DNA of 64,000 nt from Clostridia bacterium (GCA_900769665.1 CAAGHL010000060.1:264-64263), one strand, 5' to 3'; shown: positions 9,168-36,600, counted from the first letter of the stretch. A program made the numbers and translations. The notes: generated by a model from the letters alone, not told the origin.

Positions 9168-9275
9168 TCGTCTTACGATTGTTGGCAAAAACAATGCCGA
9201 CTTTCGGCAAAACAACGGCTGTTTATAGCTAACGCCGACAATCGTGGCTAGCCGACAAACGGCAAACTTACTACA

Positions 9276-18725: not shown

Positions 18726-18740
18726 TACAAATTTTACACT

Positions 18741-18770
18741 TGACCCACCGAGTTTTCGGCTCGGTGGGTC
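18741..18770 (+). terminator. Stem-loop after the giant surface-protein gene (no clear U-tract)
   Basis: GACCCACCGAG / CTCGGTGGGTC form a perfect 11-bp stem with a 7-nt loop. The structure starts 16 nt after the stop codon. Confidence 0.5.
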
Positions 18771-18905
18771 AACTAAATTGCAAGTGTTTCGTCAAACGTC
18801 GGTCGGGCGGCGCTTGCCAAAGCACTTGACAATTACAAAACTATTGAAAACAACGTGCTTGTATGGTACAATATTACACGACAACTTTGTATCGGAGTTT
18901 TTGAC

Positions 18906-21900
18906 ATGATTACACCTAACATCGAGGAAAAACTTTCCACAGTTTGTAGCAAACTTAATGCTTTGCAACAAGTTGCACGGATTGACTTTGACGTGCAATA
19001 TGCCCCGTGTAACGCCGATTGTCGACACGCATTGCCGACTTCTCGCACCGATTGGCAGGATTTTTCCTACCCATACTATTTGTTTGAACAAAACAAGTAC
19101 TATTGGTTTCACGCCAAGTTTACCGTGACCAAACTGCAACCGCACCAAAAGGCGTATTTGTGCGTGGAAACATTTATCGACGGCGTGTCGAGTACTATCC
19201 GTCCGCAGGGGTTGTTGTACCTCAACGGAAAGGAAGTCTGCGGCATAGACATCAAGCATACCGACGTGTTGCTTGACGGCGAGGGCGAGTACGAAATGTA
19301 CTTGCATTTTTACACGCACGTGTTTGGTACGGGTTTGCCGTTGTACTTCCTCATTAAGATACGCGACGAACGCATTATGCGCGCATATTACGACTTTAGC
19401 GTGCCACTTTCGGCTGTTAAACTGCTTAACTTGCGCACTAACGAGCTGTCGCGAAGTCTTGCCGTATTGGAAAAAGCTACCAATATCGTGGACTTCCGTA
19501 CGCCGTATTCCGACGAGTTTTTTGCCTCTTTGGAGCATGCTTGCGAGTACTTGAAGAAGGAGTATTACGAGGCGCTCGGCGGTAGTTTTAATACTGCGTT
19601 GTGCATCGGACACACGCACATCGACGTTGCATGGCTGTGGAATTTGGAACAAACTCGCCAAAAGGTAGAACGCAGTTTTGCCACCGTTTTGAAGCTTATG
19701 GACGAGTACCCCGAGTACCGTTTTATGATGTCACAACCGCAACTGTTTACCTACTTGAAGGCGACCGACCCCGAATTGTTTGCCCGTGTAAAGCAACGTG
19801 TTGCCGAGGGGCGTTGGGAAGTTGATGGCGCAATGTGGTTGGAAGCCGACACCAACCTGACTAGCGGAGAAAGCCTTGTGCGACAACTGATGTACGGACA
19901 AAAGTTTTTCCGCGAGGAGTTTGGCGTGGATTGCACATGCGTGTGGTTGCCCGACGTGTTCGGTTACAGCGGACAACTGCCGCAAATAATGGCAAAAAGC
20001 GGCATTAGGCGTTTTGTCACGGCAAAAATAGGTTGGAACGACACCGACCGCTTCCCGTATGATGTATTCGATTGGTACGGTATAGACGGAAGCAAAGTTT
20101 TTGCATATTTGCTGTCCACGTGCGACACCGATCCGCGCAACGGAGTTTACGACCACACCTACACAAGCTACTGCGAGCCGCTTACCGCCAAGAGTGCGCT
20201 CGGCACTTGGAATAGGTTTCAGCAAAAGGACTACACCGACAGCGTGTTGATGAGCTACGGCTATGGCGACGGCGGAGGTGGACCGACAAGGGAGGACCTC
20301 GAACGTCAGCGCAGACTTGCCTACGGCGTGCTCGGCTTGCCAAAGACAAAAATTGTCGGTTTGCACGAGGCGTTGGATGTGGTTGAGGGCAACTTCCGCA
20401 AGGCGTGTGCTGAACTGCGACGTACCCCAAAGTGGCACGGGGAATTGTACTTCGAGTTTCACCGCGGTACGTTGACCAGTGTGCCTAGGGTAAAGAAGAA
20501 TAACCGCATGGCGGAAATTGCGCTTGGTAACGCCGAGGCGATGTCCGTTGCGGCAAACAAGCTGTGCGGCGTGACATACCCGAAGGAAACAATCGAACGT
20601 AATTGGAAGACGGCATTGCTAAATCAATTTCACGACATTTTGCCCGGTTCGGCGGTGGAAGAGGTGTACGCCGACAGCGATAAGCAATACGCCGAGTTGT
20701 TTGTCGAGGTGGGTGGCGTAGCGCAAAAGGCGTTGCAGGTCTTGGCGGAAAATATCGGCGCAGGTGGCAAAAATGTGGTGTTCAACAACACTCCGTTTGC
20801 GGCAAACGGCACGGTGACCGTTGACGGAAAAACTCGCATTGTGCGTGACATCCCGTCGCACGGATATAAGGTTGTCGACGTTGACGGCGCAAACGAAAGC
20901 GGTGCGGAACAAGTGTCGGTAAATGGCAATATGTTGCAAAATTCCTACTACGTATTGACTTTTTCGCGCAACGGAAGTATCGAAAGCTTGCTCGACAAAC
21001 GTAATAATCGCCAAATTGTGCCCGACGGGCAACGCCTAAACGAGTTTGTCGCATACGAGGATTTACCCTACGAATACGACAACTGGGAGATGACGCCCTA
21101 CCACAAGCAAAAGTTTTGTGTGCTGAACGATGCGGCGGAGTTTTCTGTCGTGGAAAACGGCGATCGAAAAGGTTTTGCTATCGTAAAGACGTACGGCAAG
21201 TCCACGATTACACAACACGTGTGGCTGTATGCCGATGGTATCGACCGTATCGATTTCGACGCCGACGTGGATTGGCAGGAAAAGGGACAGTTGCTGAAAG
21301 TGCGTTTCCCGTTGGATGTGATGTGCGACAATGCTCGCTACGACGTGCAATTCGGTAGCGTTTTGCGCAGTACGCACGACAACACAAGTTGGGACAGCGC
21401 ACGGTTTGAAAGCGTGGCGCACAAGTGGGTGGATATGTCGGAAGGTAACTATGGCGTGGCGTTGCTAAACAACGGCAAGTATGGTTTCGGCACAGAAGAC
21501 AACGTGCTGACAATGACGGTGTTGAAGTCGGGCAGTTTCCCTTACGACGGCGCAAGCGATGTAGTACCGAACTTTACTTATTCGCTTTTGCCGCACGCAA
21601 AAGACTACACAAACGGCGTAATAAGTGCCGCTTATGTGCTTAATAACCCGTTTACTGTCGCAAAAGGCGGCAACGGACAACTTGCGCAAGAGTATTCGCT
21701 TGTGTCGACAAACGACGGCGGCGTTGTGTGCGAAACGGTCAAACAAGCCGAGGAAGGCAGCGGAATGGTAGTGCGCGTATACGAGGCAAACGGCGCGCGC
21801 CACAATGCGACAATTACATTCGGTTTGCCGGTCAAGCAAGCATATTTGTGCGACCTTAACGAGAATGAAATCGAACAACTGCAAACGGACGGTAACGACG

Positions 21901-21950: not shown

Positions 21951-24070
21951 TAAAAAATTTTGAGTTGACCGACAATTCGATGTTTTCCGTAAACTTGTCG
22001 GACGGTTGTTTTGCCGACATTGTAGTGTATGGGCAAAGGTTGAATTGCGGTAAAGTGAGTTTGTTTTCCGTCAAACTGCGTGACAAAAACGGTTGTGGCA
22101 AGGTGATTTCCGCCGAAGATTGCCGTTTTATCGGCTTTGATGGCGTATTGGCAAAGTACACGTGTGACGACGTGGACGTTGCCGTGCGTTTTTCTTTGTC
22201 AAGCGACAACTCGGCATTGTCGTTGCGCATGGACGTAACCAACAGAACCGATTTGCTTGTGGAGTGGGTGGAGTTGATGTCGGTGTTCGTCGGCGGAAAA
22301 CTTCGTGACGAAGAGGGTGGAACGGGCGCAATTGTGTACCCGTTTAACGAAGGTGGACTTGTGACAAATATGGCTTTCCGCGAAAGCATGCCCTACCGTT
22401 ACGACGAGCCGCAGTACCCTAGTAAAAGCGGTTATTCGATATTTCCAAACATGATTTGTTCGCAATTTTTAGCATACGTATCAAAAAATTGCGGACTTTA
22501 CCTCGGTATGCACGACCACGAACGCACCACAAAACACATCGACTTTCGCTATTGCAACGGCAACATCAAATTGCAAATGCGCACGTTTTGCAATGTCGAC
22601 TACGGGCAAAACTACGTCATGCCGTTTGATTGCGTAATGCAACCGTTTGTTGGCGACTGGCACGACGCATGCGAAATTTATCGCAAGTGGTTCGAGCAAA
22701 ACTTGCCTACAGGTTTGACCAAAATCGTCGACAACAAAACCTTGCCAAGCTGGTACGCAAAGTCGCCCGTCACCATCATTTACCCCGTGCGCGGACGTAA
22801 AGATACCGGCGACATGACCCCAAACGGCATGTACCCGTACGCAAACGGACTGCCGTTTTTGCAAGAGGTAGCGGCGGCGACGGACAGCTCCGTCATGGCA
22901 CTCTTGATGCACTGGGAAGGGACTGCGCCTTGGGCACCGCCTTACGTGTATCCGCCCTTTGGCGGAGCGGAGCAGTTTGCCGATTTTTTACGTCGTGCGC
23001 ACGATAAAAATATGTTTGTCGGCTTGTATATGAGCGGCATGGGTTACACGCTTAAAAGCAATGTTTTGCCCGATTACGACCGCACTACGGATTTCGAGCG
23101 CGACCACATTGCTGACATAGTTTGCACGGACAGCGACGGCAGTAAAAAGGGCATTATTTGTACGCAACAGCGCGTCGGGTACGACTTGTGCCCTGCATGC
23201 GACAAAACCAAACAAATTATGTCCGACGAAATAACAAAGCTTTGCGACATGGGTGTGGATTACGTGCAGGCGCTAGATCAAAACCATGGTGGCGTAAGCT
23301 ATTTCTGCTACAGCGACAAGCACGGGCATATCCCCGCCCCGGGCAAGTGGCAAGAGGAAGAAACGTGCAAAATGCTCGATCTTGTGCGTGCAAACGGCGC
23401 GCTTATGGGGTGTGAGTCGGCGGCAAGCGAGCCGATGATTGCGCATTTGCCGTACAGCGACAACCGTTTTCAGCTAAATCTCTACGTCGGAACTCCCGTC
23501 CCTGTGTACAGCTACATTTACCACGAGTATGTCAACAATTTTATGGGCAATCAGGTGTGCGCCATGATGAACAAGGTGGAGGAAAACTACACCTACCGCC
23601 TTGCGTACAGTTTTACCGCCGGAGATATGCTTAGCCTTGTTACGCTTGGCGACGGCAAGGTGGAGTACAGCTGGGACGATTGGATTGCACCGCACGACAA
23701 AACCGTCGACAAACAAGTTGCTTACAACTTCATACGCACGCTAAACGGTTGGAGACAAGGTGCGGCAGGCAAGTATTTGCATGTCGGGCGTATGGTAAAA
23801 CCCGTTGCCGTGACGTGCGGCAAACAACACTTTACTTTGGATGACGGCAGTAGTTACGCTCCCGACGAGGTACTTACGACAGCGTATACGTTGGACGGCA
23901 CTACGTTGCAGTTTGTTGTCAACTACAATCGCTGCGAAGTAAATGTGACTTTGCCGTATGCGTTAGGCGGCTTCCTCGATAGCACCCTGACCAAGGAATT
24001 TGCCCCGACCCAAACCCTCACTCTTGCACCCCTTTCTGTAATCGCCCTTAAACTATCTCCCCAACAATAA
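21947..24070 (+). CDS. Uncharacterised 707-aa cytoplasmic protein, putative glycan-active enzyme (family not recognised)
   Basis: The start ATG overlaps the GH38 stop (ATGA at 21947-21950). There is no signal peptide and the coding composition is clean. Function is inferred only from operon context. Confidence 0.6.
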   Translation: MIKNFELTDNSMFSVNLSDGCFADIVVYGQRLNCGKVSLFSVKLRDKNGCGKVISAEDCRFIGFDGVLAKYTCDDVDVAVRFSLSSDNSALSLRMDVTNRTDLLVEWVELMSVFVGGKLRDEEGGTGAIVYPFNEGGLVTNMAFRESMPYRYDEPQYPSKSGYSIFPNMICSQFLAYVSKNCGLYLGMHDHERTTKHIDFRYCNGNIKLQMRTFCNVDYGQNYVMPFDCVMQPFVGDWHDACEIYRKWFEQNLPTGLTKIVDNKTLPSWYAKSPVTIIYPVRGRKDTGDMTPNGMYPYANGLPFLQEVAAATDSSVMALLMHWEGTAPWAPPYVYPPFGGAEQFADFLRRAHDKNMFVGLYMSGMGYTLKSNVLPDYDRTTDFERDHIADIVCTDSDGSKKGIICTQQRVGYDLCPACDKTKQIMSDEITKLCDMGVDYVQALDQNHGGVSYFCYSDKHGHIPAPGKWQEEETCKMLDLVRANGALMGCESAASEPMIAHLPYSDNRFQLNLYVGTPVPVYSYIYHEYVNNFMGNQVCAMMNKVEENYTYRLAYSFTAGDMLSLVTLGDGKVEYSWDDWIAPHDKTVDKQVAYNFIRTLNGWRQGAAGKYLHVGRMVKPVAVTCGKQHFTLDDGSSYAPDEVLTTAYTLDGTTLQFVVNYNRCEVNVTLPYALGGFLDSTLTKEFAPTQTLTLAPLSVIALKLSPQQ

Positions 24071-24085
24071 CTCCGCCCAATATAA

Positions 24086-24125
24086 CTAAAAAATCAATAC
24101 GTATGTAAAAGTTACTTACATTTTT
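24086..24125 (+). promoter_or_regulatory. Recurrent bipartite intergenic motif, copy A (A-tract, ATACGTAT, N12, TACATTTTT)
   Basis: CTAAAAAATCAATACGTATGTAAAAGTTACTTACATTTTT. The same architecture occurs at 7513, 30904, 50319, 55953, 60474 and 62895, with a partial copy at 49396. Confidence 0.5.
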
Positions 24126-24482
24126 GTGAAATTCAAACGTATTTAGCAGTGATATTATTGTACAAAGTTGCAATTCGTGTAATTGGCAGTCCTCGTGCAT
24201 TTGAAAAATACCGATGGCGACAAAAGTAACTATACGCATTATATCTAAATATAGGAATATGTAAAAATCATCTTAATTGCAAGGTTTTGTGTCGATTGGC
24301 GCAAGACCTTGTTTTTTGTATTTGTGAAACTTTGAAAAGATGTCTTTAGCGACTGTCGAATGAGTGTTGTAAGTTTTGATGTTCAAAAGATGTGAAATTT
24401 TTTAATGAAAAGTGCAACGTTACATAAATAATGCGACAATGTGCTTTATAGTTTACGTACAAACAAATTACGGGAGGTTTTT

Positions 24483-24683
24483 ATGGATAACTGCAATGAC
24501 AAGCAAATGCCGCTTTCCGCCGAGGAATGCGAGGTGCGCTACGGCAAGCCTATCACCACAAGCATACTGCAAATAAAGTTGGAAATCGGTTACAACCACG
24601 CAAGCCGAATCCTAAAAAGGTTGGACGAGGTCGGTTTGCTGGTGGCGGACAACAAAGGCAACAAGTACATCGCCGTCGAGTAG
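24483..24683 (+). CDS. Stand-alone FtsK-gamma-like winged-helix protein (66 aa)
   Basis: A GGGAGG RBS precedes the ATG at 24483. ITTSILQIKLEIGYNHASRILKRLDEVGLLV matches the FtsK gamma consensus (S-x-LQR-x-L-x-IGYNRAAR-x-I-x2-ME-x2-GIV). Confidence 0.75.
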   Translation: MDNCNDKQMPLSAEECEVRYGKPITTSILQIKLEIGYNHASRILKRLDEVGLLVADNKGNKYIAVE

Positions 24684-24843
24684 CGGCTTAAACCCATTGC
24701 AATGCGTTGTTTGCTTGCGGAGGAATGTGTTGCTGTGGCAAACCAATCCTCGCTTACACGTTAGATAAATTGCAAAATGTACACATTGTTGCCAACCTAG
24801 TTGTCAAACGACCGACAACGCCAAACAAAACAGGAGATTACAA

Positions 24844-25962
24844 ATGAATATACAACCGGAAAGAACGGAGTACGACCATCACTTTGCACTTGCGCTGATT
24901 GCCATGGCGAGAGCCGATTGGATAGGCGCGCATGAGGAGTTGAGTCTTGCCGCCGACAGCTTGTACAAGTTTAGCGCACAGCAAAATTCCTTCGAGCAAA
25001 ACGTCACCAAGGGGTGGCTGTACGACATAATCCGAGAGTTGAAACGTATCGAATTGCACAACAACAACCAAGCCGCACGCGCCAAAATGGAAGCGCGCAT
25101 GCAGAAAAAAAGCGGCGGCACCGACAGCGGTATACAAGCCTGTACGCCGATGTGGAAGTTTGACGACATTGCAGGTTTGTCCGACGTCAAAGAAGAGGTA
25201 AACTACAACGTCGTATTGCCCGTCAAGTACCCCGATTTGTACAAATTGTTCCGTAAAAAGACCAACGGCGGCATACTGATGTACGGCTTGCCGGGTACGG
25301 GCAAAACAATGATTGCCGAAGCCATTGCCGGCGAAATCGGCGCAAAGTTTTTCCCCGTTAGATGCTCTGACCTTGGCAGTAAGTGGTTTGGCGAAACGGA
25401 ACAAAACATTAAAAAACTGTTTGAGGCGGCGCGGAAAGCCGACAAATCCGTGATATTTTTTGACGAGGTGGAAGCCTACGCCTCCAACCGTAGCGACGGC
25501 GAAACAATGGTGCGCGCCACAAACGAGCTGTTGTCGCAGTTGCAGGGCGCGTGCACCGAACAAATAAACAAAAACATACTTGTCATTGCCGCCACAAACA
25601 AACCGTGGGCATTGGACGGCGCATTTTGGCGACCCGGGCGGTTTGATGAAAAAATTTACGTGCCGTTGCCCGACAAAGCGGCTCGCAAACGTATCATGGA
25701 GCTATCCTTTGCCGAAGTGCCGAGCGAGGACATTGACCTTGGCGAATACGCCGAACGTTGCGAGGGCTTCAACGGCGCGGACGTCAAGTACTTGTGCGAA
25801 AAGGCAAAGGAAGCAGCAATCAAACGTGTGCTTGCCGACCAAGACTCCGCACGCAAACTACTGCGCAACGACTTGGAACAAGCAATGCGCATTGTCGGTA
25901 GCTCCGTCATTGTGCAAGACAAAACGCAAATGCAAAACTGGTGCGCGCGGCTCGGCGCATAG
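24844..25962 (+). CDS. Classical-clade AAA+ ATPase (Vps4/katanin/FtsH-like single AAA module) with a short helical N-domain
   Basis: Walker A GLPGTGKT, Walker B VIFFDEVE, SRH region ATNKPWALDGAFWRPGRFDEKIYVPLPD. An N-terminal region of about 100 aa is all-helical. Confidence 0.9.
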   Translation: MNIQPERTEYDHHFALALIAMARADWIGAHEELSLAADSLYKFSAQQNSFEQNVTKGWLYDIIRELKRIELHNNNQAARAKMEARMQKKSGGTDSGIQACTPMWKFDDIAGLSDVKEEVNYNVVLPVKYPDLYKLFRKKTNGGILMYGLPGTGKTMIAEAIAGEIGAKFFPVRCSDLGSKWFGETEQNIKKLFEAARKADKSVIFFDEVEAYASNRSDGETMVRATNELLSQLQGACTEQINKNILVIAATNKPWALDGAFWRPGRFDEKIYVPLPDKAARKRIMELSFAEVPSEDIDLGEYAERCEGFNGADVKYLCEKAKEAAIKRVLADQDSARKLLRNDLEQAMRIVGSSVIVQDKTQMQNWCARLGA

Positions 25963-26016
25963 GGCGTCGGCGGTGGCAAACACCTACACGCGCAACGCAA
26001 AACAAGAGAGGGTAAT

Positions 26017-27309
26017 ATGTATTTCAAGAAAAACGACAAATTCACATGCGACAACAATCAAACGTACGTTGTCGAGGACTTGCTCGGCGAGGGCGGACAA
26101 GGCGAGGTGTACCTTGTGTCAAACGGCGTGCAAAAGTATGCGCTTAAAATCTACAAAAAGCAGGAAACAAGCGACTTCAAGTACAACCTGCGCAACAACA
26201 TCGAAAACGGCAGTCCGTCGGCGGATTTTTTGTGGCCAAAGCGTTTGTATGAGTGCGACGACGGGCGCATAGGTTACTTTATGGATTTGCGCCCCAAAAA
26301 CTACGTGTCGTTTGTATCCTACCTTACGGGCAAAAACCAATTCAAAAACAAGGCAACGTTGCTAAAGTGGTGCGTTTCGCTGTGTTCGGCGTTCAAAAAG
26401 TTGCACGAGCAAGGGTTTTCCTACCAAGACCTCAACGACGGCAGTTTCTTCTTCGACCCCGACACGGGCGCATTGCTTATTTGCGACAACGATAACGTGA
26501 CCGCCGACAAAAAGAACCTCGGCATCCTTGGCAAAATGCGCTACATGGCGCCGGAAATCGTCACCGGCAAGTGCTTGCCCGACGTGCACTCGGATAGGTT
26601 TTCGTTGGCGGTGATACTGTTTATGGCGTTGTGCTTAGGCAATCCTTTCGAGGGAGAACGGCTGAAAGACTACGACATCGTGGATGAAAAAGCCGAGTAC
26701 GAGATGTTCGGTAGCGACCCCGTGTTTGTCTACCACAAGACGAGGAAAACCAACCGCCCCATACGCGGCTACCACTCCGCAGTGCTCAAACGTTGGGCGT
26801 ATTTGCCGATGTACGTCAAGGAAGCGTTCCATCGCACCTTTGTGGACGGACTTGTCGACCGTGAAAACGAACGCACCACCGAGATAGAGTGGCTGAAACT
26901 GCTGACCAAGTACAGGGACGAGCTGATTACCTGCCCTCACTGCGGCTATGAGTACGTATTGGGGTTGGAAGATAAAAAGCGGTACGACGTTTGCCCGTTG
27001 TGCGGCAAGCCTACAAAAGAAGTGTGTTTGCTGACGATCGGCAAGAGCAAAATAGCGTTGGAACCCGACAAATACTTGTACAAAAGCCATATAGACAAGT
27101 ACACGGACGACTACTCGACTGTTGTCGGAAAAGTAATACGTAACAAGAAAAACCCGACATTGTGGGGCATAAAACTTGCTCTCGGTAACGCCGTAGAGGT
27201 GGAAGACGCAAGCGGCGACAAACGTATTATTGCCGCCGACGGCGTGATACCCGTCGTGCGTAATCTAAAAATCAGGTTTGGTAGTAGTTTGGTCGGCGAA
27301 ATTAAGTAA
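26017..27309 (+). CDS. Ser/Thr protein kinase-like protein with C-terminal zinc ribbon and FHA-like beta domain (TerY-P-type kinase)
   Basis: Gly loop LGEGGQGEVY, YALKIY lysine, atypical catalytic loop YQDLNDGS, CDNDN in place of DFG, and YMAPEI. A CPHCG...CPLCG ribbon is followed by about 100 aa rich in beta strands. Confidence 0.85.
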   Translation: MYFKKNDKFTCDNNQTYVVEDLLGEGGQGEVYLVSNGVQKYALKIYKKQETSDFKYNLRNNIENGSPSADFLWPKRLYECDDGRIGYFMDLRPKNYVSFVSYLTGKNQFKNKATLLKWCVSLCSAFKKLHEQGFSYQDLNDGSFFFDPDTGALLICDNDNVTADKKNLGILGKMRYMAPEIVTGKCLPDVHSDRFSLAVILFMALCLGNPFEGERLKDYDIVDEKAEYEMFGSDPVFVYHKTRKTNRPIRGYHSAVLKRWAYLPMYVKEAFHRTFVDGLVDRENERTTEIEWLKLLTKYRDELITCPHCGYEYVLGLEDKKRYDVCPLCGKPTKEVCLLTIGKSKIALEPDKYLYKSHIDKYTDDYSTVVGKVIRNKKNPTLWGIKLALGNAVEVEDASGDKRIIAADGVIPVVRNLKIRFGSSLVGEIK

Positions 27310-27434
27310 CGTATTGCTTTTTTAGTGACATAAAGGGCTAATTCGATATGGATTTTGATGTAGATTGACAGCGGTTTTGCAACCGAAATTACACTACGAA
27401 AGTAGCAAAAAAATAACACGAGAGAGGTAGAAAC

Positions 27435-28163
27435 ATGGAAGACAGAGTGCTAGGCGACGGCATTGCCCGTCAGGAACTGAATTTGTTGTTTGTAATCGAC
27501 ATATCGGGATCGATGGACGGCGAAAAAATCGGTGCGGTAAACAACGCCATACGCGACGTAATGAGCATAATGCCCGAGATACAGGACGACACGTCGGACG
27601 CGGTGATAAAGATTTCGGCGTTGAAGTTTAGCGACAATGCGGAGTGGGTGTACCCCGAACCCAAGTCTATTGCCGACTTCAAGTGGAAGGACGTGACCGC
27701 CGAAACGGGTACGAACTTGTCGGCGGCGTTGGACGCAATGTCGGCGTGGTTGTGCAAACGTAGCAAGGGCGGACAAATGCCCGACATCGGCGGTATTGCG
27801 CCCATCATCATTTTGATGACCGACGGTATGCCGACAAGTTACGATTGGCAAGACCACTTGTTCAATCTAAAAAAGAAGGGTTGGTTTCGAGTGGCGTTGA
27901 AGTACGCCCTTGCCATCGGCGTGGAAGATCAAGAAGCCATGGACGTGCTGACGGCATTTACCGGCAACTCGGAAACGGTGCTGAAAGTGTACACGGCGGA
28001 AGCGTTGCGCAAGGTGATTAAGGTAATTGCCGTGACGGCATCCAAGGTCAAGTCCAACAGCGCATCCACAAGCGGCGTAGGCGGTGCGGTGGTGGACAAC
28101 AACCAAGTGGCGCAGGCGCAAATCGCCGACAAGTTGGAAGAGGTGACGGACGTTGAGTGGTAG
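27435..28163 (+). CDS. vWA-domain protein, TerY-like (copy 1)
   Basis: MIDAS motif VIDISGSM with downstream LMTDGMPT. Its size (242 aa) and C-terminal acidic tail (VTDVEW) are like TerY. Confidence 0.88.
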   Translation: MEDRVLGDGIARQELNLLFVIDISGSMDGEKIGAVNNAIRDVMSIMPEIQDDTSDAVIKISALKFSDNAEWVYPEPKSIADFKWKDVTAETGTNLSAALDAMSAWLCKRSKGGQMPDIGGIAPIIILMTDGMPTSYDWQDHLFNLKKKGWFRVALKYALAIGVEDQEAMDVLTAFTGNSETVLKVYTAEALRKVIKVIAVTASKVKSNSASTSGVGGAVVDNNQVAQAQIADKLEEVTDVEW

Positions 28164-28887
28164 CTTGCCTGCGGTTGTCGCTGACCGAATTGCAAAACAG
28201 CGACTAAACGTAATATTGGTTGTGGATTGCTCAACAAGCATGCGCGGCGAACGTATTGCGCAAGTCAATGCGGCGATACACGACATAAAACGCTACCTAA
28301 GCAAACTGCAAGGGGACAACTCCAACGTCGACTTTTACATCACTGTCATCACCTACTCCACCGACGCGTTTTTCCTCAATCGGGACAAATGCAAGGCAGT
28401 GGATGAATTTGAGTTTTTCGACATCAAGGCAGGCGGTTGGAGCAATCTGCACATCGCCTACAAACGCCTTTCCGAAATCTTGCGTAAGGAATCCAAGGGC
28501 GGACAAATGCCCGACTACGGCGGCGTTGCGCCAATTGTGTTGCTGATGACCGACGGACACCCCACCAAGGACAACGTCGAAGACCAGTTGAAGGCGTTGA
28601 AAAAGTTGCCTTGGTTTAACGTAGCGTTGCGCTACGGCATTGCAATCGAGCTAAACGACAAACGGACAATGAAGTGCCTCACCGATTTTGTCGGCGGCAA
28701 CGGTGACGTGGTGGAGTGCTACGACGCTCGACTGCTGGAACGTATCATCAAGGTGATTGTGTTGACGGCTTCCAAGGTCAAGTCGAGTTCCGCAAGCGTG
28801 CGCGCCGAGGGTGTGCCCGACGTGACGGAAGAGGTCCGGCAGGAAGTGCGACAAGCTATTTCCGAAGTGGATGATTGGGAGTGGTGA
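28153..28887 (+). CDS. vWA-domain protein, TerY-like (copy 2)
   Basis: The TTG start lies 6 nt after GGAAGAGGTGA and overlaps the copy 1 stop by 11 nt. MIDAS motif VVDCSTSM with LMTDGHPT. The tail EVDDWEW parallels that of copy 1. Confidence 0.85.
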   Translation: MSGSLPAVVADRIAKQRLNVILVVDCSTSMRGERIAQVNAAIHDIKRYLSKLQGDNSNVDFYITVITYSTDAFFLNRDKCKAVDEFEFFDIKAGGWSNLHIAYKRLSEILRKESKGGQMPDYGGVAPIVLLMTDGHPTKDNVEDQLKALKKLPWFNVALRYGIAIELNDKRTMKCLTDFVGGNGDVVECYDARLLERIIKVIVLTASKVKSSSASVRAEGVPDVTEEVRQEVRQAISEVDDWEW

Positions 28888-28888
28888 C

Positions 28889-29728
28889 ATGCTGAGATTT
28901 TTTACAAAGACGGCAATAGGGTACAACCATTTGCAACATGGCAAGCCTTGCCAAGACTTCTCCGCAAGCTATCACGACGAGGAACGCACCATTGTTACGG
29001 CATGCGACGGACACGGTAGTGAGGTGCATGTGCGTAGCGCCCTCGGTAGTAAATTTGCGGCGGAAGCGGTGATAAATGTATTCAAAAAAGTAACACGTAT
29101 GCTGTTTTTCCGCACAAAAACGGAAGAAGCAAACAAAAAATTGCGGTTGGAAATCTTGTGCGAATGGAATGCGCTTGTGGAACGTCACCTTGCTGAACAT
29201 CCGTTAAGCAAGGCGGAGCTGTCAACGCTGGACGAAGACAAGGTGTTTCGCTTGAAGACCGACCCGACGGTGGCGTACGGCACCACGTTGCAAGGCGCAA
29301 TGTTTTTCGGCAACAAGGTGGTGTGTGTTTCCTTGGGTGACGGCGGCTGTTTTGTAGTAAAGCGCGGTATGCTGTATCCGCTGTTCGAGGATGTCGAGGA
29401 AGAGGAAAACGTGGCAAACGTCACTTGCTCTATGTGCCAATCGGACGCATACAAACACTTGCATGTCGCCGTGTTTGATGCAAAAAGCGTGCAAGGCGTA
29501 ATAGTACTAACCGACGGACTGATAAACCCCTACCGCAACTTGGGCAACTTTGCCGAAAAGTTTGTTGCGCCCACTGTGACCAATTTGCTTGACGGTAATG
29601 CGGGCGTGGTGAATGAATTTATTACTAGGTTGGGTGCGGAATTGGGCATTGGCGACGACGTGTCGTTAGGCATTATTTTGCGAGATAACCGCACTTCTGC
29701 AAGCCGAGTCAGGGAGAAGCAAACATGA
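28889..29728 (+). CDS. PP2C-family Ser/Thr phosphatase (TerY-P-type)
   Basis: GYNHLQHGKPCQDF, ACDGHGS and VLTDGL metal-binding motifs. The start is the ATG at 28889, after GGGAGTGG; the ORF track allows 28871. Confidence 0.85.
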   Translation: MLRFFTKTAIGYNHLQHGKPCQDFSASYHDEERTIVTACDGHGSEVHVRSALGSKFAAEAVINVFKKVTRMLFFRTKTEEANKKLRLEILCEWNALVERHLAEHPLSKAELSTLDEDKVFRLKTDPTVAYGTTLQGAMFFGNKVVCVSLGDGGCFVVKRGMLYPLFEDVEEEENVANVTCSMCQSDAYKHLHVAVFDAKSVQGVIVLTDGLINPYRNLGNFAEKFVAPTVTNLLDGNAGVVNEFITRLGAELGIGDDVSLGIILRDNRTSASRVREKQT

Positions 29729-30804
29729 AGTTTCGCGAAGCATTGAAGTATTGTTTCGACAATCGCACGACGGACGACGACATTGTTGCGCCGTTTAGGC
29801 TGTATTGCAAGTTGTGCGACATGACGGACAGCGGATATGCAAACGCCAAGAAATTGCGTAACTTTTTTGCCGTGGACAAGAGGGTTGCATTGGTGGAAAG
29901 TATGGTGAAGGAAGGGGTTGCAAGCGTTGAACCATTGACGGAAAAGTATGCTCTCGTAAAGGATTTCCTGTCGCAAAAAAGTTACTACGTATTGGTTTTC
30001 CTTGTGCAAAACACGCTGTTTCCGCATTGGGACAACGATGTCGCCGAACTGAAAAACAAGCTTGTTCCGCAAAAAAAGGTTGCAGACAAACCGACGGCAA
30101 ACAATGTGGCGAAAAAGCCGACTGTAACCCGTGCGCCTACATCGGGCGGTAGCCAAAGTGGCAAAGGCAATCCCAACGGCTCGGGCAGTGGCGGTGCGGC
30201 AACGACGACAAATCAATCGACAACGCAAAGTCAATATGCAACAAGCCAAAACGCAACCACGCAATCGACAACAAGTCAAACAACATCGACCCCGACGTAC
30301 CGTTCCTCAACAAGCGGTGTGTCGTACGGCAGTTACTACCATGACTTTGCGGAAACAAACTTCGACGACGTCATTTTGCCGTTTAGGTTTGTATTTGTCT
30401 TTTTGTTGGCGGCGGTTGCCGTGGCTACGGGCATATGCGCAATATTCTTTGCCCAATATGGTTGGACGTATTGGCAGTGGGTTGTCGGCGCGGCAATTGC
30501 CGTTGTGTTGCCGTACTTGTTTTTCGAGGGCGAAAACCTGATTAACAGCATGTACGCAACCTTCCCTTTGGCGTTGGCTGTGTATGCATTTTGCATTTGT
30601 GGCGTGGTGCTCAATCACGTGTTTCGCAACGACTTTGCCTTGGTTGCCCATTGGCTGTACGGCGCAATGTTTGCAACAAGTTTTGTGGTTGCATTTGTGT
30701 ATGTAGGCGACAAGAAAAGGCGTGCGCACACAAGAATGTATCTCGTGGCGCTGTTGGTAAGCGCGGTGTTGTTCGTTGCGGAGTTTTTCGTGGATTTTGC
30801 GTAA
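29725..30804 (+). CDS. Polytopic membrane protein: N-terminal soluble domain, S/T/Q/G-rich low-complexity linker, C-terminal 4-5 TM helices
   Basis: ATGA overlap with the PP2C stop. The linker is GGSQSGKGNPNGSGSGGAATTTNQSTTQSQYATSQNATTQSTTSQTTSTPTYRSSTSG, followed by hydrophobic helices. Confidence 0.75.
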   Translation: MKFREALKYCFDNRTTDDDIVAPFRLYCKLCDMTDSGYANAKKLRNFFAVDKRVALVESMVKEGVASVEPLTEKYALVKDFLSQKSYYVLVFLVQNTLFPHWDNDVAELKNKLVPQKKVADKPTANNVAKKPTVTRAPTSGGSQSGKGNPNGSGSGGAATTTNQSTTQSQYATSQNATTQSTTSQTTSTPTYRSSTSGVSYGSYYHDFAETNFDDVILPFRFVFVFLLAAVAVATGICAIFFAQYGWTYWQWVVGAAIAVVLPYLFFEGENLINSMYATFPLALAVYAFCICGVVLNHVFRNDFALVAHWLYGAMFATSFVVAFVYVGDKKRRAHTRMYLVALLVSAVLFVAEFFVDFA

Positions 30805-30903
30805 TTCTCGACCATTGAACAAACGATTCGGACGGCAATATTTGTCGCTTACGGCCGGAAAATTCTTTACAACCAAAAGAATAAAAACAGCACGTTAAAA
30901 CAT

Positions 30904-30941
30904 CAAAAAATGATACGTATGCAAAAATTAACTACATTTTT
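30904..30941 (+). promoter_or_regulatory. Recurrent bipartite motif, copy B, 23 nt upstream of the lemA RBS
   Basis: CAAAAAATGATACGTATGCAAAAATTAACTACATTTTT. Confidence 0.5.
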
Positions 30942-30963
30942 ACAAATCTACGGAGGATAAATC

Positions 30964-31470
30964 ATGGGATTTTGGGGTTGGACGTTGACAATCATCGGGG
31001 CAATTTTGGTTGTCGTGGTGTTTGTGGTGTTGCCGATCAAGTTTTGCAACACGGTACTTCGCAAAAAAGAAGAAATCGAAAAAGCAAAAAGCCGAGTGCG
31101 CATTGCCAAGGCTAAGTACTTGCAAGTTTTGCGCAAAATGGGCACAACGCAACAGGAAGCTTACGACGCTCACGGCGGCGCCTACAACAAGGCAAACAGT
31201 GGCAGAGCCGGTTATTTTATTAGCGGCGCAATAGGCAACATCGAAAGCGAGTTTGACAAAACGCAACAAGTGGTGTTGACCTTGGCGGACGACTACCAAG
31301 CGGCGCAACAATCGCTCAACGAGCTTGTCAACGACTACAACGTGTACATCACAACCTTTCCGCGCGTGATATTTGCCAAGCTGTTCCGCTACCAAAAGGA
31401 AAAGTACGTCGACTCCGCCAATTTGGACGCCAGTACCGAGCTTCGCGGCTTCGACGACAACGACATTTAG
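30964..31470 (+). CDS. lemA: LemA-family membrane protein
   Basis: N-terminal TM helix and a GGAGGA RBS. The size of about 170 aa and YNVYITTFPRVIFAKLF fit the LemA Y-N-x-I-x2-FP-x3-A motif. Confidence 0.75.
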   Translation: MGFWGWTLTIIGAILVVVVFVVLPIKFCNTVLRKKEEIEKAKSRVRIAKAKYLQVLRKMGTTQQEAYDAHGGAYNKANSGRAGYFISGAIGNIESEFDKTQQVVLTLADDYQAAQQSLNELVNDYNVYITTFPRVIFAKLFRYQKEKYVDSANLDASTELRGFDDNDI

Positions 31471-31574
31471 CCGACAACCGCGACACCCAATGCCACCTAA
31501 CGTGGACGCAACCAAACGTTGACGGGTAGGGCAGGTGGAGTAAAAATTAAAAGTTTATACTAAGGAGAAATGCT

Positions 31575-31901
31575 ATGAAACTAATTTGTGCGTTAATCAA
31601 ATGGGGCATCCGAGTTGCGTTCTTTTACTTCGTTATGATGCCGACGGCTTATGCCACCAAGTCCATCATTTTGTTGGTCGCCGAGCTTATTGCCAGTGGC
31701 ATATCGCTAAGCCGTTACGAGTCGGACGAAATCTTCCAAGTAATCACGGGTTGGGGTCCGTTCGGCGATTTCGGTCACTACGAGTACACGGATCACACAG
31801 GCAAAAGAGTTCTCGGTTGGCTGTTTTGGCTCGGCGCAATGGCTTGTCGCATATTCATGATTTACTGCATGGCTAATCCGCAAATCTTGTTGGCGGAGTA
31901 A
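31575..31901 (+). CDS. Small membrane protein (108 aa, 3 predicted TM)
   Basis: AAGGAGA RBS and hydrophobic segments. I recognise no family. Confidence 0.6.
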   Translation: MKLICALIKWGIRVAFFYFVMMPTAYATKSIILLVAELIASGISLSRYESDEIFQVITGWGPFGDFGHYEYTDHTGKRVLGWLFWLGAMACRIFMIYCMANPQILLAE

Positions 31902-32083
31902 ACCTCAACCGCCGCTTGTTACCATTGCTAACCGCGCGCTCACATCTTTATTCCTTCTCCCTCCCCCACCACGCAACGCAGTGCCAAAGCGCATTTGCAA
32001 CGCTTGTTATATCACATTCAACGCAAAACCAAGCCGTTACAGCCGCATTTTTGCTTAATTTGCGACAAATTTCGTCAAACCTA

Positions 32084-32113
32084 TTGACAATGGGGAGGGG
32101 CGTGTATTATAAT
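32084..32113 (+). promoter_or_regulatory. Sigma-A-type promoter upstream of the WYL regulator
   Basis: TTGACA (32084-32089), an 18-nt spacer, then TATAAT (32108-32113). It would give a 5' leader of about 185 nt. Confidence 0.45.
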
Positions 32114-32303
32114 ACACATACTTGGTTTTGTAGTCTATTGTATATATTATTAGCAAACCAATGTTGTTAGAGGGATTGAAAATGATTGTCTTGTATGGCA
32201 AACTAGATATGTAGTGTCGCGGGACGGGCAGTAGCCCGGCTCCGTTTTCGCATACCTTTTTGCTGTCGCAATCGTCGTGCGCATTGCGCTTTTGAGGAGA
32301 ATT

Positions 32304-33260
32304 ATGAACAAAACGGCAAATTGCCTAAAAATGTTGCAGTATCTCAACTCCGGCAGAGTGTACAAAATCAGCGAACTCGCCGAGCGGTTGGAAACAAACC
32401 CACGCAACATCATCGAATACCGCAACGAGTTGGAAAACGCCGGCTACGTCATCATCAGCATAGCAGGAAAGTACGGTGGCTACAAGTTGGACGAAACTTC
32501 CACGTTGCCCACGGTCAAGCTCACTGCGGATGAGAAGCTCGCCCTTGTAGAAGGTGCGGGCTATTTGGCTGCCCGAAACGACTTTTTGTACAAGGCGCAG
32601 TACGAGTCGGCAATGAGCAAGGTGTATTCGGCGGTCAACCACACGGACAATCGCGAGGTATTGCCCACGGTGATTACGCGCTTCCCCCTTGCCATGAGTG
32701 AGGAAGAAATCTCCCGTCGCTACAATGCGGTGCAACGATGTATTTACGGACGTCTGAAACTGAAAATCACCTACCTTTCCGCCAAAAACGAGCAATCGCA
32801 ACGCACAATCCACCCCTACAATTTGTATATGTACAACAATGCGTGGTTTGTCATTGCGTTTGACGAGTTGCGCGGCGAGGTAAAGTACTTCAAGCTAAAC
32901 CGCATAAAGGCGTTAGAAGTGCGTGACGGCGAGCGGTTTAGGCGGTTGCTTTCGTACAAGGCAAGCGACTACGTGGACCGCTTCGGCATGAAAAACAACG
33001 GCGAGTGGTACGAGTTTGAGCTGGAACTGACCGGCAAGTACGCAATGTTGGTGCAGGAGCGCATTTATGGGCGCGACCAAGTGGTGACACCGATCGATGC
33101 GGAGCGCACGCGACTGAAAGTGACCATGCAAAACAAAACCGACGTCGTGTCCTTCGTGATGGGCTTCGGCAAGTATTGCAAAGTGCTTGAACCGGAGTGG
33201 TTGAAAGAGGAAGTTGCCGAAAGTTGTAAACTGATTTTGGATGGACTGAATAGTGGGTGA
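32304..33260 (+). CDS. HTH-WYL transcriptional regulator (YafY/CapW/BrxR-like architecture)
   Basis: N-terminal wHTH (LKMLQYLNSGRVYKISELAERLETNPRNIIEYRNELENAGYVI). Central WYL-like block (IHPYNLYMYNNAWFVIAFDE). C-terminal WCX-like extension. GAGGAG RBS before 32304. Confidence 0.85.
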   Translation: MNKTANCLKMLQYLNSGRVYKISELAERLETNPRNIIEYRNELENAGYVIISIAGKYGGYKLDETSTLPTVKLTADEKLALVEGAGYLAARNDFLYKAQYESAMSKVYSAVNHTDNREVLPTVITRFPLAMSEEEISRRYNAVQRCIYGRLKLKITYLSAKNEQSQRTIHPYNLYMYNNAWFVIAFDELRGEVKYFKLNRIKALEVRDGERFRRLLSYKASDYVDRFGMKNNGEWYEFELELTGKYAMLVQERIYGRDQVVTPIDAERTRLKVTMQNKTDVVSFVMGFGKYCKVLEPEWLKEEVAESCKLILDGLNSG

Positions 33261-33301
33261 GAGGGAACAAGCAGGGAGATTGTTAGTGAATTTGTGATTT
33301 G

Positions 33302-33329
33302 TAAAAAAATCCCGACCGAAGTCGGGATT
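33302..33329 (-). terminator. Intrinsic terminator for the minus-strand small lipoprotein gene; it may also stop the WYL transcript
   Basis: ATCCCGAC-CGAA-GTCGGGAT hairpin. An A7 run on the + strand gives a U-tract on the - strand. Confidence 0.75.
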
Positions 33330-33332
33330 AGT

Positions 33333-33518
33333 TTAGGCGATGAGGTTGTACGAAGGAACAACAAATCCTTCAAAGTCGTCGTCGATTGTCGGCGGATTGG
33401 TGTCCGTTGGAGTTTTGTTGTCGTCTTTCTTGTCCGTATCTTCTCCACAAGCAGCCAAGCAAGTGAAGCAAGCTACTAAAAGAGCCAAAACCAACAAAAG
33501 ACAAATCAGCTTTTTCAT
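33333..33518 (-). CDS. Small secreted lipoprotein (61 aa)
   Basis: MKKLICLLLVLALLVACFTCLAAC lipobox followed by an acidic, proline-rich tail. It has its own terminator. Confidence 0.6.
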   Translation of the reverse strand: MKKLICLLLVLALLVACFTCLAACGEDTDKKDDNKTPTDTNPPTIDDDFEGFVVPSYNLIA

Positions 33519-33612
33519 AATGAATCTCCCTTGTGTTAATTTAGCTATGCTGAATTAGCTATACGTTTATTTTATCAATATTGTAGTCAATTGTCAAGTA
33601 GGAGAAAACAAA

Positions 33613-36600
33613 ATGACAAGAGAAAAAAGAACAAGAGTTATGGCTGTGGCTATCCTTGCCGTAGTAATGGTATGCAGTTGTATATTCGCGGCATTTGCAG
33701 ACGGCTTTGGTGGAAATACCGCAAATGCGCTGTCCATTACGCAAGAAGAAGCTTCGCAATCTTATGTGGACAGCTTGCGCTACGGATACAATGTTACGGC
33801 GGGTAAATCGATATACGAAATCGATGCTTTTCAAGATGCCGCACCTATATTGAAACCATTTAGCGAAGGTTTGTACAAGTATGTTAACAAGCGTGAGGTT
33901 AATACCAAGAGTGATGCAGGAAACTACGAGGCAAATAACGCTTTAAGCATTGCTAAACAGTACAGTAGAACATTGAGTGGTGGCATAGAAGCTAATGTAA
34001 GGGTAGTCCAAGCCGACCTTAATGCAACATTTGATTTGAGTAATAGATTTGCAAAGACGTATGATGAGTACTATGCGGTTTATTATCAAGAAATCACACG
34101 TAATACCTACGTGATAATGGAATCCGTAGATTTGCGTGATTACCTCACGGACGAATTCAAGTCCGACATGGCTAAGATTAAGACAGAAACAGATGCTTCC
34201 AATTTTATACAAAGATACGGAACTCATTTGTTTACAGGCTTAAAGTGGGGCGGTATGTTGCAAGTGTCCAACTACCAACAAACACAAAGTAGAACCGAAC
34301 GTATTTCTACTGACATTGCTTTGTCGGCTAAAATAGGTAATACAATTGCGGCAAACGGAAGTTTTAGTTTTGCCGAAAACGTGGAAGCGCAAGAAAACTC
34401 TAGTAACAAAACCAGTCGTTACAGATGTACCCTATACGGAGGAAAAGCTGTTACTTCCGCTACTGTAGACCAAGTGTTCAAATACAATTCTGGGGAACTT
34501 AGCGGAAAAGGAAACTATGTATACAAAGAATGGGTTGACTCTATCAATGAAAACCAAAATCTTGCAATAATCGGTAGACCAGACAATGCAAGGTATGTGC
34601 CCGTGTGGGATTTATTGCCGGACGGAACAGAGTATTTGGCGGCTAAAAGATGTTTGCGCAACGCCTATACTACTCTTTGTGGAGATCAATATGATGAGTT
34701 TTTGAAAAAGTATCCTACCACAAGCCGCGAAATAGGTGAATCCGGTGTTGAAACAGGCGTCGGAACAATTGACGGATACACAATGACATATGCCGGCAAT
34801 ACATCTTACAATCAATTGAGTAAAAGCGCGACAGAATGCTCTGTTTACCGCGGCTCGACAATATCAATGAATTGTACCACTGATACCATACCTGCCGGTA
34901 TGAAAAATTGGAAGGTGGAAGGCAATCCCGATTGGGTGGAAGTTGTTGACTCAGTATCGGGCATATTCCGCATAAAAGGTAATGCTATAGCCGGACGTAC
35001 ATTTAATTTACAATTGTACAGTGGTGATACATTAGCAAAAGACCTCGGTGAAATTTTTGTTGTAAAATCCGCTAGTTTCTCAGGCGGTGAAGGTACTGAA
35101 GAAAGCCCATATATATTGTCTACAAAAGAGGATTTGTTAACTTTGTCTGCGGACAGCAGTTTGTGGGAAAAATCTTATCGACTTTCAACGGATATTGATT
35201 TGGAAAACACAAGTTGGTCGCCGTTAGGTGTTAGTGACAACCTATTTGGCGGTACGTTTGACGGCAATCATTGTACAATTTCCAATGTCAAGATAAATTC
35301 ACCTCGAGATAAAGCTGTTGGATTGTTTGGGTACATCGACAAGAATGCAACGATAAAAGACTTGTTTGTCAACAACGTTACTATCGGATACGAAGATAAG
35401 CAAATGTTGGAGTCTGACGTATCTTATGCGGGCGGATTGGTTGGCAATAGCAAAGGTACATTGGAAAACTGCCTTGTGGACAACTTGTGTATAAATGCTC
35501 GTTGTGTAATCTCAAACTCGCAAAACAATCTTTCCGTGGGCGGCTTGGTAGGAACAGCAAGCGGTACTATCAAACAATGTGGAGTAAGAAATTGTGCCAT
35601 TATTTCCGGATATTTGATGGATGAATTGGTTGGCGACCCTAATGCAGATGCTAATAAAGTAAAGGATTCTATAAATGAATTTGGAAAAAATCCTAAAACA
35701 GCAATTGTGTATGTAGGTGGATTTATAGGCGAAGCATCAGATTGTAAAATTTCCAACTGCTATGTGAATAGCGTTGCAAAATTGTCTTCTCAAGCTGCTA
35801 CGTATACAACAACGGTAAGTGTTGGCGGCTTGTGTGGATATGTAGGAACGTCAACTAAAGTTGATACTTCAGTCGTTGGGGAGATTACTAAATTTCTTTC
35901 CTCTGTAGTTTCAAATAATTCAAGAAAATGTAAATCTTCTTTTGTGGGAGATAAAACAAATACACTCGAAAAAGATGCCGTACCTACTTTTAGTAAGTGT
36001 TATGCTCAAAAGGTCGATGGTATCGAATCCGGTGTTGACAGCGGATGTACCGTACTGGGAGAAATTACATGGTCGGCAGTTGTAAATGAAAATGGTTTGA
36101 GCAAAACCATTTGGTGTGCAGAAAAAGGAACTCAATTCCCGATTTTGATTAAACAAGAAATAGGGACTGAAGCCTTGAGCTATGACGTTTCAAAAGCAAA
36201 AACCGAATTTTATTATGGTGAAAGTTTTGATATCGCCGGCGTGTCGGTTAGCGGAACGTATCGTAGCAGTGGAGAAGAAATCCAACTTGATGTGTTCTCT
36301 TATGATAGTTCTGCTTACAATCCAATGCAGGAGGGTACATACAAAATCAAAATTTATGCAATGGGCAAAGAAACGGCGTATGAAGTCGTTGTACGCAAAA
36401 TTAAGGTTGTAAACATCAAAGTGGAAGCAATAGACCCGTCCAAGACGTACTATGTGGACGAAACAATTGACGTAAACGACTACAAAGTTAGTTACGTGTT
36501 GGAAGACGGATCGCTGCTCGACCCTACTGCCGAAAAATTGTCGTATGTGCAATATCCTACAGGTAAGATTGTAGCCGACAATACTCGTTATACATATGCG

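Follow-up and report, generated by a model that had tools for sequence, protein, structure and literature searches.

A nine-gene module of a Clostridia bacterium (GCA_900769665.1, CAAGHL010000060.1:264-64263) is probably, in its composition and in the mechanism and role proposed below, a lineage-specific, elaborated TerY-P-type cassette of gut and rumen Clostridia, Erysipelotrichaceae and their relatives. The whole stretch of 64,000 nucleotides (nt) that was analysed is called the window, and coordinates are counted from its first letter. The TerY-P triad was reportedly defined by Anantharaman, Iyer and Aravind in 2012. As summarised in PMC11090510, its members are a TerY-like, MIDAS-bearing vWA protein, a PP2C phosphatase and a Ser/Thr kinase that carries a zinc ribbon at its C-terminus. 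In the window, the listing of open reading frames (ORFs) gave nine co-directional genes, g1–g9, on the + strand at 24483-31901, and a public assembly with the same contig has identical gene calls of 66, 372, 430, 242, 244, 279, 359, 168 and 108 amino acids (aa). These calls, together with profile searches, bear out the number, order and domains of the genes given in an earlier reading of this DNA (the original prediction); its VWA, PP2C, Pkinase, AAA and LemA assignments were upheld by Pfam. Comparison with related loci showed that the conserved unit consists of an atypical kinase (g3), two paralogous MIDAS vWA proteins (vWA1, g4, and vWA2, g5), a PP2C (g6) and a protein with the N-terminal domain of g7 (N-domain protein), usually followed by a WYL-WCX regulator (g10).

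The evidence for this unit comes from relatives of the g3 kinase, which matches more than 5,000 database proteins and has relatives in at least 566 species genomes. Eighty-six loci were fetched from kinase relatives and analysed with a codon-trained gene caller, protein clustering and searches with family hidden Markov models (HMMs). Clade A comprises 27 distinct loci including the window, with kinase identities of 60-82%, from gut and rumen Clostridia, Erysipelotrichaceae and Anaeroplasmataceae, and shows the gene order kinase, vWA1, vWA2, PP2C and N-domain protein. Because this core order recurs in 27 distinct related loci, the module is not a chance arrangement. Clade B, with 57 loci from Bacteroidales, Treponema, Clostridia and Synergistaceae and kinase identities of about 38-43%, has the plain triad of kinase, vWA and PP2C. 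When clade A counts were restricted to loci with enough flanking sequence, two vWA genes were found in 16 of 17 loci, as was an N-domain protein after PP2C. A WYL-WCX gene lies directly downstream in 11/17 (and upstream in locus L016), so that the WYL gene, which had been taken for a mere neighbour, is part of the conserved block. The remaining genes are optional: a g2-type AAA+ ATPase occurs in 6/23 clade A loci, the FtsK-gamma-like winged helix (wHTH) of g1 in 5/27, and LemA (g8) in 4/17, only where the kinase is at least 76% identical to that of the window, and none of the three was found in the 57 clade B loci. The view of the region as an expanded machine is therefore supported in part: the second vWA and g7 are conserved partners, the AAA+, wHTH and LemA genes are optional, and g9 has no homologue.

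The core was further connected to known TerY-P loci by homology. Distant homologues of both the g3 kinase and vWA1 occur together on about 2,300 enterobacterial plasmids, and the ter locus of K. pneumoniae plasmid NZ_CP129850.1 reads VWA, TerD, VWA, VWA/TerY-C, PP2C, kinase. Residues 10-397 of g3, through the Zn ribbon, align with the Klebsiella ter-locus TerY-P kinase (E 5e-28), vWA1 matches vWA genes of the ter plasmids by tblastn (2e-8), and g6 gives a weak alignment with the ter-locus PP2C (E 1e-3). The homology of kinase, vWA1 and PP2C to the ter locus indicates that the window core is a remote member of the TerY-P kind, in agreement with the type originally proposed. Both loci have a MIDAS vWA, a PP2C and a Zn-ribbon kinase in adjacent, co-directional genes, with multiple vWA copies; since the classical ter locus already has three vWA genes, the second vWA of the window is not the novel extra that it was thought to be. 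Unlike the ter locus, with which identity is only about 24-28%, the window has the kinase first rather than last and adds the N-domain membrane protein, WYL-WCX, AAA+, wHTH and LemA. No TerD, TerY-C or other Ter genes were found within about 10 kb of the module; such genes are frequent but not obligatory in the TerY-P family. Near 21 clade B loci there is a stand-alone TerY-C protein (PF15616, 1.5e-10), and TerD (7e-71) is found near 4. The clade B TerY-C proteins are about 120-180 aa long (for example L038:9585-9947, L040:15591-15956, L051:9579-9998, and 18 further loci) and have a C-terminal Gly-Gly with one or two further residues behind it (SGGDL, GGDM, AGGY, GGDF). Directly upstream of some clade B kinases lie 2-3 tandem TerD genes with a preceding protein of 860-900 aa (L040:8678-9976; L062:7404-8588; also upstream of the kinase in L072 and L085), and these tandem TerD genes tie clade B to Ter systems.

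With these results, it is quite improbable that the region is simply a known TerY-P triad of the Gao_TerY kind (Gao et al. 2020) beside six unrelated genes. That explanation would account for the absence of AAA+, wHTH and LemA from most clade A loci and from all clade B triads, for the lack of a g9 homologue in any locus, and for the gaps of 104-160 nt around g1, g2, g8 and g9. It is already contradicted, however, for vWA2, g7 and WYL by the conservation described above. Moreover, the reading frames of the vWA2 and g7 genes overlap or abut their neighbours: g4 and g5 overlap by 11 nt, g5 starting at a TTG with GAGGTG 6 nt upstream of it, g5 and g6 are separated by 1 nt, and g6 and g7 share an ATGA overlap; the overlaps, the gap and the TTG start are as first described. 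AAA+ orthologues found without reference to the kinase adjoin other genes of the system in 7/8 contigs (see below), and the TerY model of PADLOC has no match in the window proteins, so that membership in Gao_TerY, the label given originally, is not shown; PADLOC would not assign this branch to TerY-P. The window and the Gao_TerY (PADLOC TerY-P) systems have the same three enzyme/domain classes per operon. The Gao-type kinase is reported to carry a C-terminal OB fold (PMC11090510), whereas the window kinase is predicted from its model to end in a Zn ribbon and an FHA-like sandwich.

The g3 kinase (26017-27309, + strand, 430 aa; Pkinase 1.4e-15) contains a kinase domain in residues 1-295 (26017..26901) with an invariant G-loop, K44, D138, D157/D159 and APE motif. 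Its C-terminal part (26923..27306) holds four Cys of a Zn ribbon, C306, C309, C326 and C329, which are invariant across 54 sequences, and a putative FHA-like beta sandwich (residues ~335-430). An AlphaFold2 (AF2) model of g3, made with the alignment of 54 sequences, had a predicted local distance difference test score (pLDDT) of 92.3, and a Foldseek search with the whole model returned kinases exclusively, CaMK-type at 1e-11. When the last 135 residues were modelled alone (pLDDT 93.6), the model showed a Zn ribbon with four Cys and, after it, a beta sandwich, and the top PDB matches of the sandwich were all FHA domains, those of DgcB (6hc0), ArnA (5a8i) and APLF (5w7y), at a probability of 0.99-1.0 and a TMt of 0.60-0.64 with marginal E values of 0.03-0.06. 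An OB fold was not among the top Foldseek matches of the tail model. The FHA-like tail that had been suggested for the kinase is thus upheld at the level of fold.

The two vWA proteins, vWA1 (27435..28163, +, 242 aa; VWA 1.2e-9) and its diverged paralogue vWA2 (28153..28887, +, 244 aa; VWA 4.7e-10), share 42% identity, and both carry the MIDAS motif DxSxS. The single vWA of clade B matches vWA1 at 1e-40 to 1e-49 but vWA2 only at 1e-21 to 1e-29, and vWA1 is by this comparison the orthologue of the TerY-type vWA of plain triads. In both clades every vWA protein (L001-L086 and window 28050-28163 and 28770-28887) has a tail of the same kind, in which a Ser-rich linker (SKVKSxS or SKIGSKSS) leads through a short helix to an acidic, Trp-ended stretch (DVEW, DWEW, GDDW, DDWD). 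The linker is likely a phosphorylation site and the tail end a docking peptide. The g6 phosphatase (28889..29728, +, 279 aa; PP2C_2 1.1e-28) shows the DGHGS, GDGG and TDG motifs.

The g7 membrane protein (29725..30804, +, 359 aa) is composed of an N-domain (residues 1-100), an S/T/Q-rich linker of 110 residues, 36 of them Ser or Thr, and a C-terminal region with five transmembrane (TM) segments in a hydropathy scan. In relatives, the N-domain of about 100 aa precedes, at the same gene position, a TM bundle in some proteins and a Toastrack (DUF4097) domain in others. This domain is rare: a HMMER search with the N-domain alone found 56 representative clusters among 1.84 billion proteins, and a word-indexed search with full g7, in which the low-complexity linker dominates the words, returned a single protein of 98% identity. 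The N-domain HMM matched in two clade B loci only, so that the proteins following PP2C in clade B, considered as possible sharers of the domain, were rejected; the long clade B PP2C proteins, considered as carriers of the membrane part of g7, contained coiled coils instead. The last member of the block is the HTH-WYL-WCX regulator g10 (32304..33260, +). Its ORF opens at 32277, with the likely start at the ATG after GAGGAGA, and it contains, in this order, HTH_11 (8.6e-5), WYL (3.9e-16) and WCX (4.3e-11) domains, the PADLOC WYL profile matching at 8.4e-36.

Among the optional genes, g2 (24844..25962, +, 372 aa) encodes a single-module ATPase (AAA 1.6e-37, AAA_lid_3 4e-9) with a helical N-domain of about 100 aa that has no Pfam match. 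The Walker A (GLPGTGKT), Walker B (IFFDE), pore-loop (SKWFGE) and RPGRFD motifs are conserved in the orthologue alignment, and by these sequence features g2 is a member of the classical AAA+ clade (CDC48 / Vps4 / PAN / FtsH). It scores nearly equally against CdvC (2e-59, 201.4 bits) and CDC48 (8.5e-59, 199.6 bits), with 186.7 bits for PAN, and the near-equal CdvC and CDC48 scores show no clear preference and so do not resolve a Vps4/katanin sub-clade. The g1 gene (24483..24683, +, 66 aa), with GGGAGG 5 nt before its ATG, encodes a putative FtsK-gamma-like winged helix (FtsK_gamma E 8e-7; 29.1 bits against PF09397, whose gathering score is 30.6). A homologue in L100 reaches 38.6 bits against FtsK_gamma, and g1 is homologous (tblastn 1e-5) to the C-terminal FtsK_gamma domain (81.8 bits, Pfam 3e-23) of a protein of L012 belonging to the family we call c4.

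The c4 proteins link the AAA+ and wHTH genes to proteasome-like peptidases. They are 190-215 aa long and occur in 13/27 clade A loci, always as 2-4 tandem paralogues (L004:7508-9850; L012:7449-8855; L013:1509-3774; L021:18714-21024; L010:13660-15963). The c4 profile matches BPH (5ovu) at 1e-9 and HslV (1m4y) at 7e-8, and Pfam Proteasome at 1.9e-4. Some paralogues begin with MS/MT-(V/I)3-A, that is, with Ser/Thr at position 2, and keep the Asp and Lys of Ntn-hydrolases; alternating paralogues have lost these residues. A g2-type AAA+ gene lies beside c4 arrays in clade A loci L008, L012, L015 and L021. Metagenome contigs were also scanned with the AAA+ alignment alone, independently of the kinase, and 8 matches with the AAA+ N-domain were obtained, of which 7 adjoin c4 (L097, L099, L109, L110), wHTH (L096, L098, L099, L100) or kinase (L096, L100) genes; the eighth, L104, is a 1.7-kb contig too short to tell. 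Overall, AAA+ orthologues adjoin c4, wHTH or kinase genes in 13/14 loci. The wHTH stands alone in the window, L001-3, L096 and L100. In L012 and L099 it forms the C-terminus of a c4 protein, and L027 has it fused to a soluble, FtsH-like AAA-M41 protein. These neighbourhoods and fusions support the AAA+ and FtsK-gamma wHTH as being specific to this system. They belong to an optional, proteolysis-type accessory set, which in relatives includes the c4 arrays and in some cases a soluble FtsH-like protein, and of which the window keeps only these two genes, as no c4 homologue was found anywhere in the 64-kb window by tblastn and HMM searches. With its c4 partners absent, the window carries a reduced accessory set rather than a fuller machine.

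Other ATPase genes were seen in these loci. Soluble FtsH-like proteins with AAA and Peptidase_M41 domains, in which no TM segment was noticed, are encoded at L004:2994-4307, L027:118-1704, L041:6006-7367 and L109:6988-8268. In the IMG/VR viral contig L095, a Ser/Thr kinase domain (4e-33) is fused to a classical AAA module (1.8e-32) at 8210-9943, directly upstream of a clade B TerY-P kinase, which forms a second, independent link between an AAA protein and the triad. At L109 (5273-13868), WYL, FtsH-like and Sel1 genes accompany a g2-type AAA+, a pair of c4 genes plus a c4 fragment, a vWA1-like gene and an N-domain protein that has no TM segments. Kinase and PP2C are missing, and the locus gives the impression of a relative that has been rearranged or is decaying.

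The AAA+ and wHTH genes of the window might be decaying, non-functional remnants of a lost AAA+/proteasome-like module. We consider this rather unlikely. The c4 genes are missing from the whole window and present in 6/8 AAA+ loci with usable flanks, and decay is visible in L109, with its c4 fragment and no kinase. On the other hand, g2 is not truncated and keeps every ATPase motif, and g1 has a strong ribosome-binding site. The g1-g2-g3 arrangement is kept at 98% identity in the independent sample L096 and in another assembly, and in L100 the AAA, wHTH and kinase genes stand side by side, at 58% identity. A bolder explanation, which we put forward only tentatively, is that the TerY-P switch controls an undescribed ATP-dependent protease, in which a CDC48/Vps4-like ring would work with a heteromeric HslV/BPH-like proteasome of active and inactive paralogues and would be guided by the wHTH towards DNA or DNA-bound targets. 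Phospho-regulated receptors for its substrates would be provided by the vWA proteins, a part that Rpn10 plays for the eukaryotic proteasome, and the window would represent a peptidase-less variant with the unfoldase alone.

Two described systems resemble the AAA+ part of the cassette. In type III-A CoCoNuT extensions, TerY-like vWA genes flank a SpoVK/CDC48-like AAA+ ATPase (PMC11090510), and in the window, too, a classical AAA+ gene shares a putative operon with a duplicated TerY-like vWA pair and the TerY-P triad. The CoCoNuT ATPase, however, has tandem modules and LRR and beta-barrel domains, sits between the vWA genes and is tied to McrBC-type nucleases, whereas that of the window is a single-module protein encoded upstream of the kinase, with no CoCoNuT genes nearby, and has orthologues linked to proteasome homologues in the relatives of the window. 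HslUV and BPH/Anbu are similar in that, in those relatives, an AAA+ ATPase stands beside HslV/BPH-like Ntn-hydrolase subunits; unlike HslUV, the ATPase is of the classical (CDC48/Vps4-like) clade and not HslU, and the peptidase genes are 2-4 diverged paralogues. The core of kinase, vWA and PP2C and the kinase with Zn ribbon and beta-rich domain have already been described (PMC11090510; PMC7159879). In the literature searched, we found neither the five-gene core of clade A with N-domain protein and WYL nor a link of a single-module classical AAA+ with HslV/BPH-like arrays and FtsK-gamma, although the 2012 TerY-P paper may mention either, and no paper linking HslV/proteasome homologues with vWA, PP2C and anti-phage systems.

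The other optional genes encode membrane proteins. The LemA-like g8 (30964..31470, +, 168 aa; LemA 3.6e-7) is a predicted single-pass protein with a TM segment at residues 7-25; it scores 30.5 bits against PF04011, above the cut-off of 26.2, over profile positions 83-138 only, and has homologues only in L001-3, L007 and L009. The small protein g9 (31575..31901, +, 108 aa) has 3 TM segments in the hydropathy scan and no homologue in any fetched locus. In the relatives, every LemA gene is followed by a small hydrophobic protein, and these are non-homologous between loci. Since g9 lacks homologues and an unrelated small protein follows each LemA, g9 is a positional partner of LemA and not a member of a conserved family. 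LemA and the small membrane protein thus form an optional insert of a sub-lineage.

For the elaborated TerY-P-type cassette, we propose a phosphorylation switch modelled in part on ArnA and ArnB. In Sulfolobus acidocaldarius, ArnA, with Zn ribbon and FHA domains, binds the vWA protein ArnB at its phosphorylated C-terminus (PMC6509490), and the two act in motility repression and archaellum gene control, with kinases and a phosphatase setting the state (PMC6509490). There, as proposed for the window, a Zn-ribbon/FHA unit works with a vWA protein that bears the phosphosites in its C-terminal region, and ArnA 5a8i is among the top folds for the kinase tail. The Arn proteins differ in being archaeal, in having FHA and kinase on separate proteins, in using PP2A instead of PP2C, and in the extra domains of ArnB; the likeness is one of architecture and fold, with no sequence homology shown. 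By this analogy, the g3 kinase would phosphorylate vWA1 and vWA2 in their Ser-rich tail linker. The assembly of vWA1, vWA2 and kinase would then be altered, either by the FHA-like domain or by a MIDAS site to which the acidic Trp-ended tail binds as ligand, and PP2C would reset the switch. Its state could be passed on to the N-domain protein, as membrane bundle (g7) or Toastrack, and, where present, to the AAA+ / peptidase set, which would unfold or degrade a target, while the wHTH might direct this activity to DNA or a DNA-bound protein. WYL-WCX, with its own predicted promoter, would set the expression of the module.

Several observations weigh against this interpretation. PADLOC profiles, including the TerY model PDLC02224, gave no match for vWA1, vWA2 or PP2C at E values up to 0.1; the g3 kinase matched mad6 and PD-T4-6 only, and even a clade B vWA matched the TerY model at merely E 0.012. 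In the kinase tail, in addition to the marginal E values of the FHA matches, the canonical phosphothreonine-binding residues of FHA domains (Arg of GR, SxxH) are not conserved: next to the Gly, the alignment shows K, R, N or H, and near-invariance is confined to N81 and a few Gly. Phosphopeptide binding by the tail is therefore not established. As there is no c4 in the window, the ATPase g2 may be orphaned or otherwise employed here. Intergenic gaps of 160, 54, 125, 159 and 104 nt lie within the block, and promoter and terminator counts were at the level of shuffled sequence, except for the sites at 24279-24312 and 32084-32113; with these gaps and chance-level scans, operon structure inside the block is not settled. 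Finally, the window and most clade A loci have housekeeping or surface-protein genes as neighbours rather than defence genes, and a Pfam scan of 144 clade A neighbours gave mostly housekeeping genes, along with Sel1 (5), ThiF (2), NERD (2) and MACPF (2).

The role of the module is likely defence against phage or stress, and defence is the leading role because TerY-P systems tested elsewhere, including a P. aeruginosa variant (bioRxiv 10.1101/2022.08.12.503731), protect against phage without culture collapse, with cells surviving (PMC7699616; bioRxiv 10.1101/2022.08.12.503731). The alternative that the module is a housekeeping phospho-signalling unit, controlling envelope or surface functions such as MACPF and MBL proteins through WYL in parallel to ArnA/ArnB, is possible but considerably less probable. 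The setting of the window speaks for it. Upstream of the module are GH123, GH38 and DUF6259 genes; on the downstream side come genes for a MACPF surface protein of 1,557 aa, an MBL-fold protein, a LytTR two-component pair and GH3. These flanks, a glycan operon and surface-protein, MBL, LytTR and GH3 genes, hold no defence gene within about 10 kb and are not the defence island that the original prediction assumed. Homologues of the MACPF and MBL proteins also follow WYL in at least three relatives, L020 (15723-19595), L024 (8404-13207) and L011 (20573-21310), whose kinases are 61-69% identical, which keeps a regulatory, non-defence explanation alive. The predominance of housekeeping genes among clade A neighbours, the membrane-stress-type partners LemA and Toastrack (at the g7 position), and the regulatory nature of ArnA/ArnB (PMC6509490) point the same way. 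Against a housekeeping unit stand the patchy, cross-phylum distribution (Clostridia, Bacteroidota, Spirochaetota, Synergistota), the rapid turnover of accessory genes even among close relatives, nine clade B copies in IMG/VR contigs, the phage defence by tested TerY-P systems, and the frequency of WYL regulators in defence loci (PADLOC WYL 8e-36). Moreover, the L001-3 modules lie between a serine recombinase with Rep_ORF2-G2P and a 706-aa ThiF/E1-like protein with radical-SAM/SPASM; along with the IMG/VR copies and the patchy distribution, this setting speaks for a mobile cassette of the conflict type.

Further features of the flanks were noted. In L001, the flanking genes map to 4172-6820 and 16579-21293, and in L004-6 genes for NYN, ThiF and WCX proteins (L004:14737-20070) come after the module; the flanking genes of L001-3 and L004-6 may be further conflict-type systems, like the FtsH-ternary systems of PMC7159879. 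In the window, the large MACPF surface protein (33613-38286), which carries Big_3, Glug and Listeria-Bacteroides repeats, and the secreted MBL-fold protein (38205-40619) lie just downstream of WYL, a position that would fit either co-regulation with the module or mere synteny. At 24279..24312 (+), an intrinsic terminator with a 15-bp stem followed by a T run ends the upstream GH38/DUF6259 glycan operon and marks the 5' boundary of the module. A sigma-70-type promoter is predicted before the WYL gene at 32084..32113 (+) by a consensus match alone (TTGACA-18-TATAAT, 12/12), and a leader of about 190 nt (32114-32303), with no Rfam match and with a T run behind a GC-rich hairpin (32225-32238), separates it from the WYL start codon. 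Rfam searches gave no known RNA family in 23800-33800. Direct repeats upstream of g1 and of WYL were considered as operators and dismissed as short and unconvincing.

For the mechanism of TerY-P systems, the natural variants of this lineage suggest as outputs a membrane or Toastrack protein, an AAA+ unfoldase, peptidases resembling the proteasome and the DNA-binding wHTH. As substrates of the kinase and as docking sites, the conserved Ser-rich, Trp-ended vWA tails and the FHA-like tail of the kinase are candidates. The link between the AAA+ and c4, if functional, would be a new kind of bacterial proteasome-like machine, and the window and its relatives offer a direct comparison of the system with and without peptidases.

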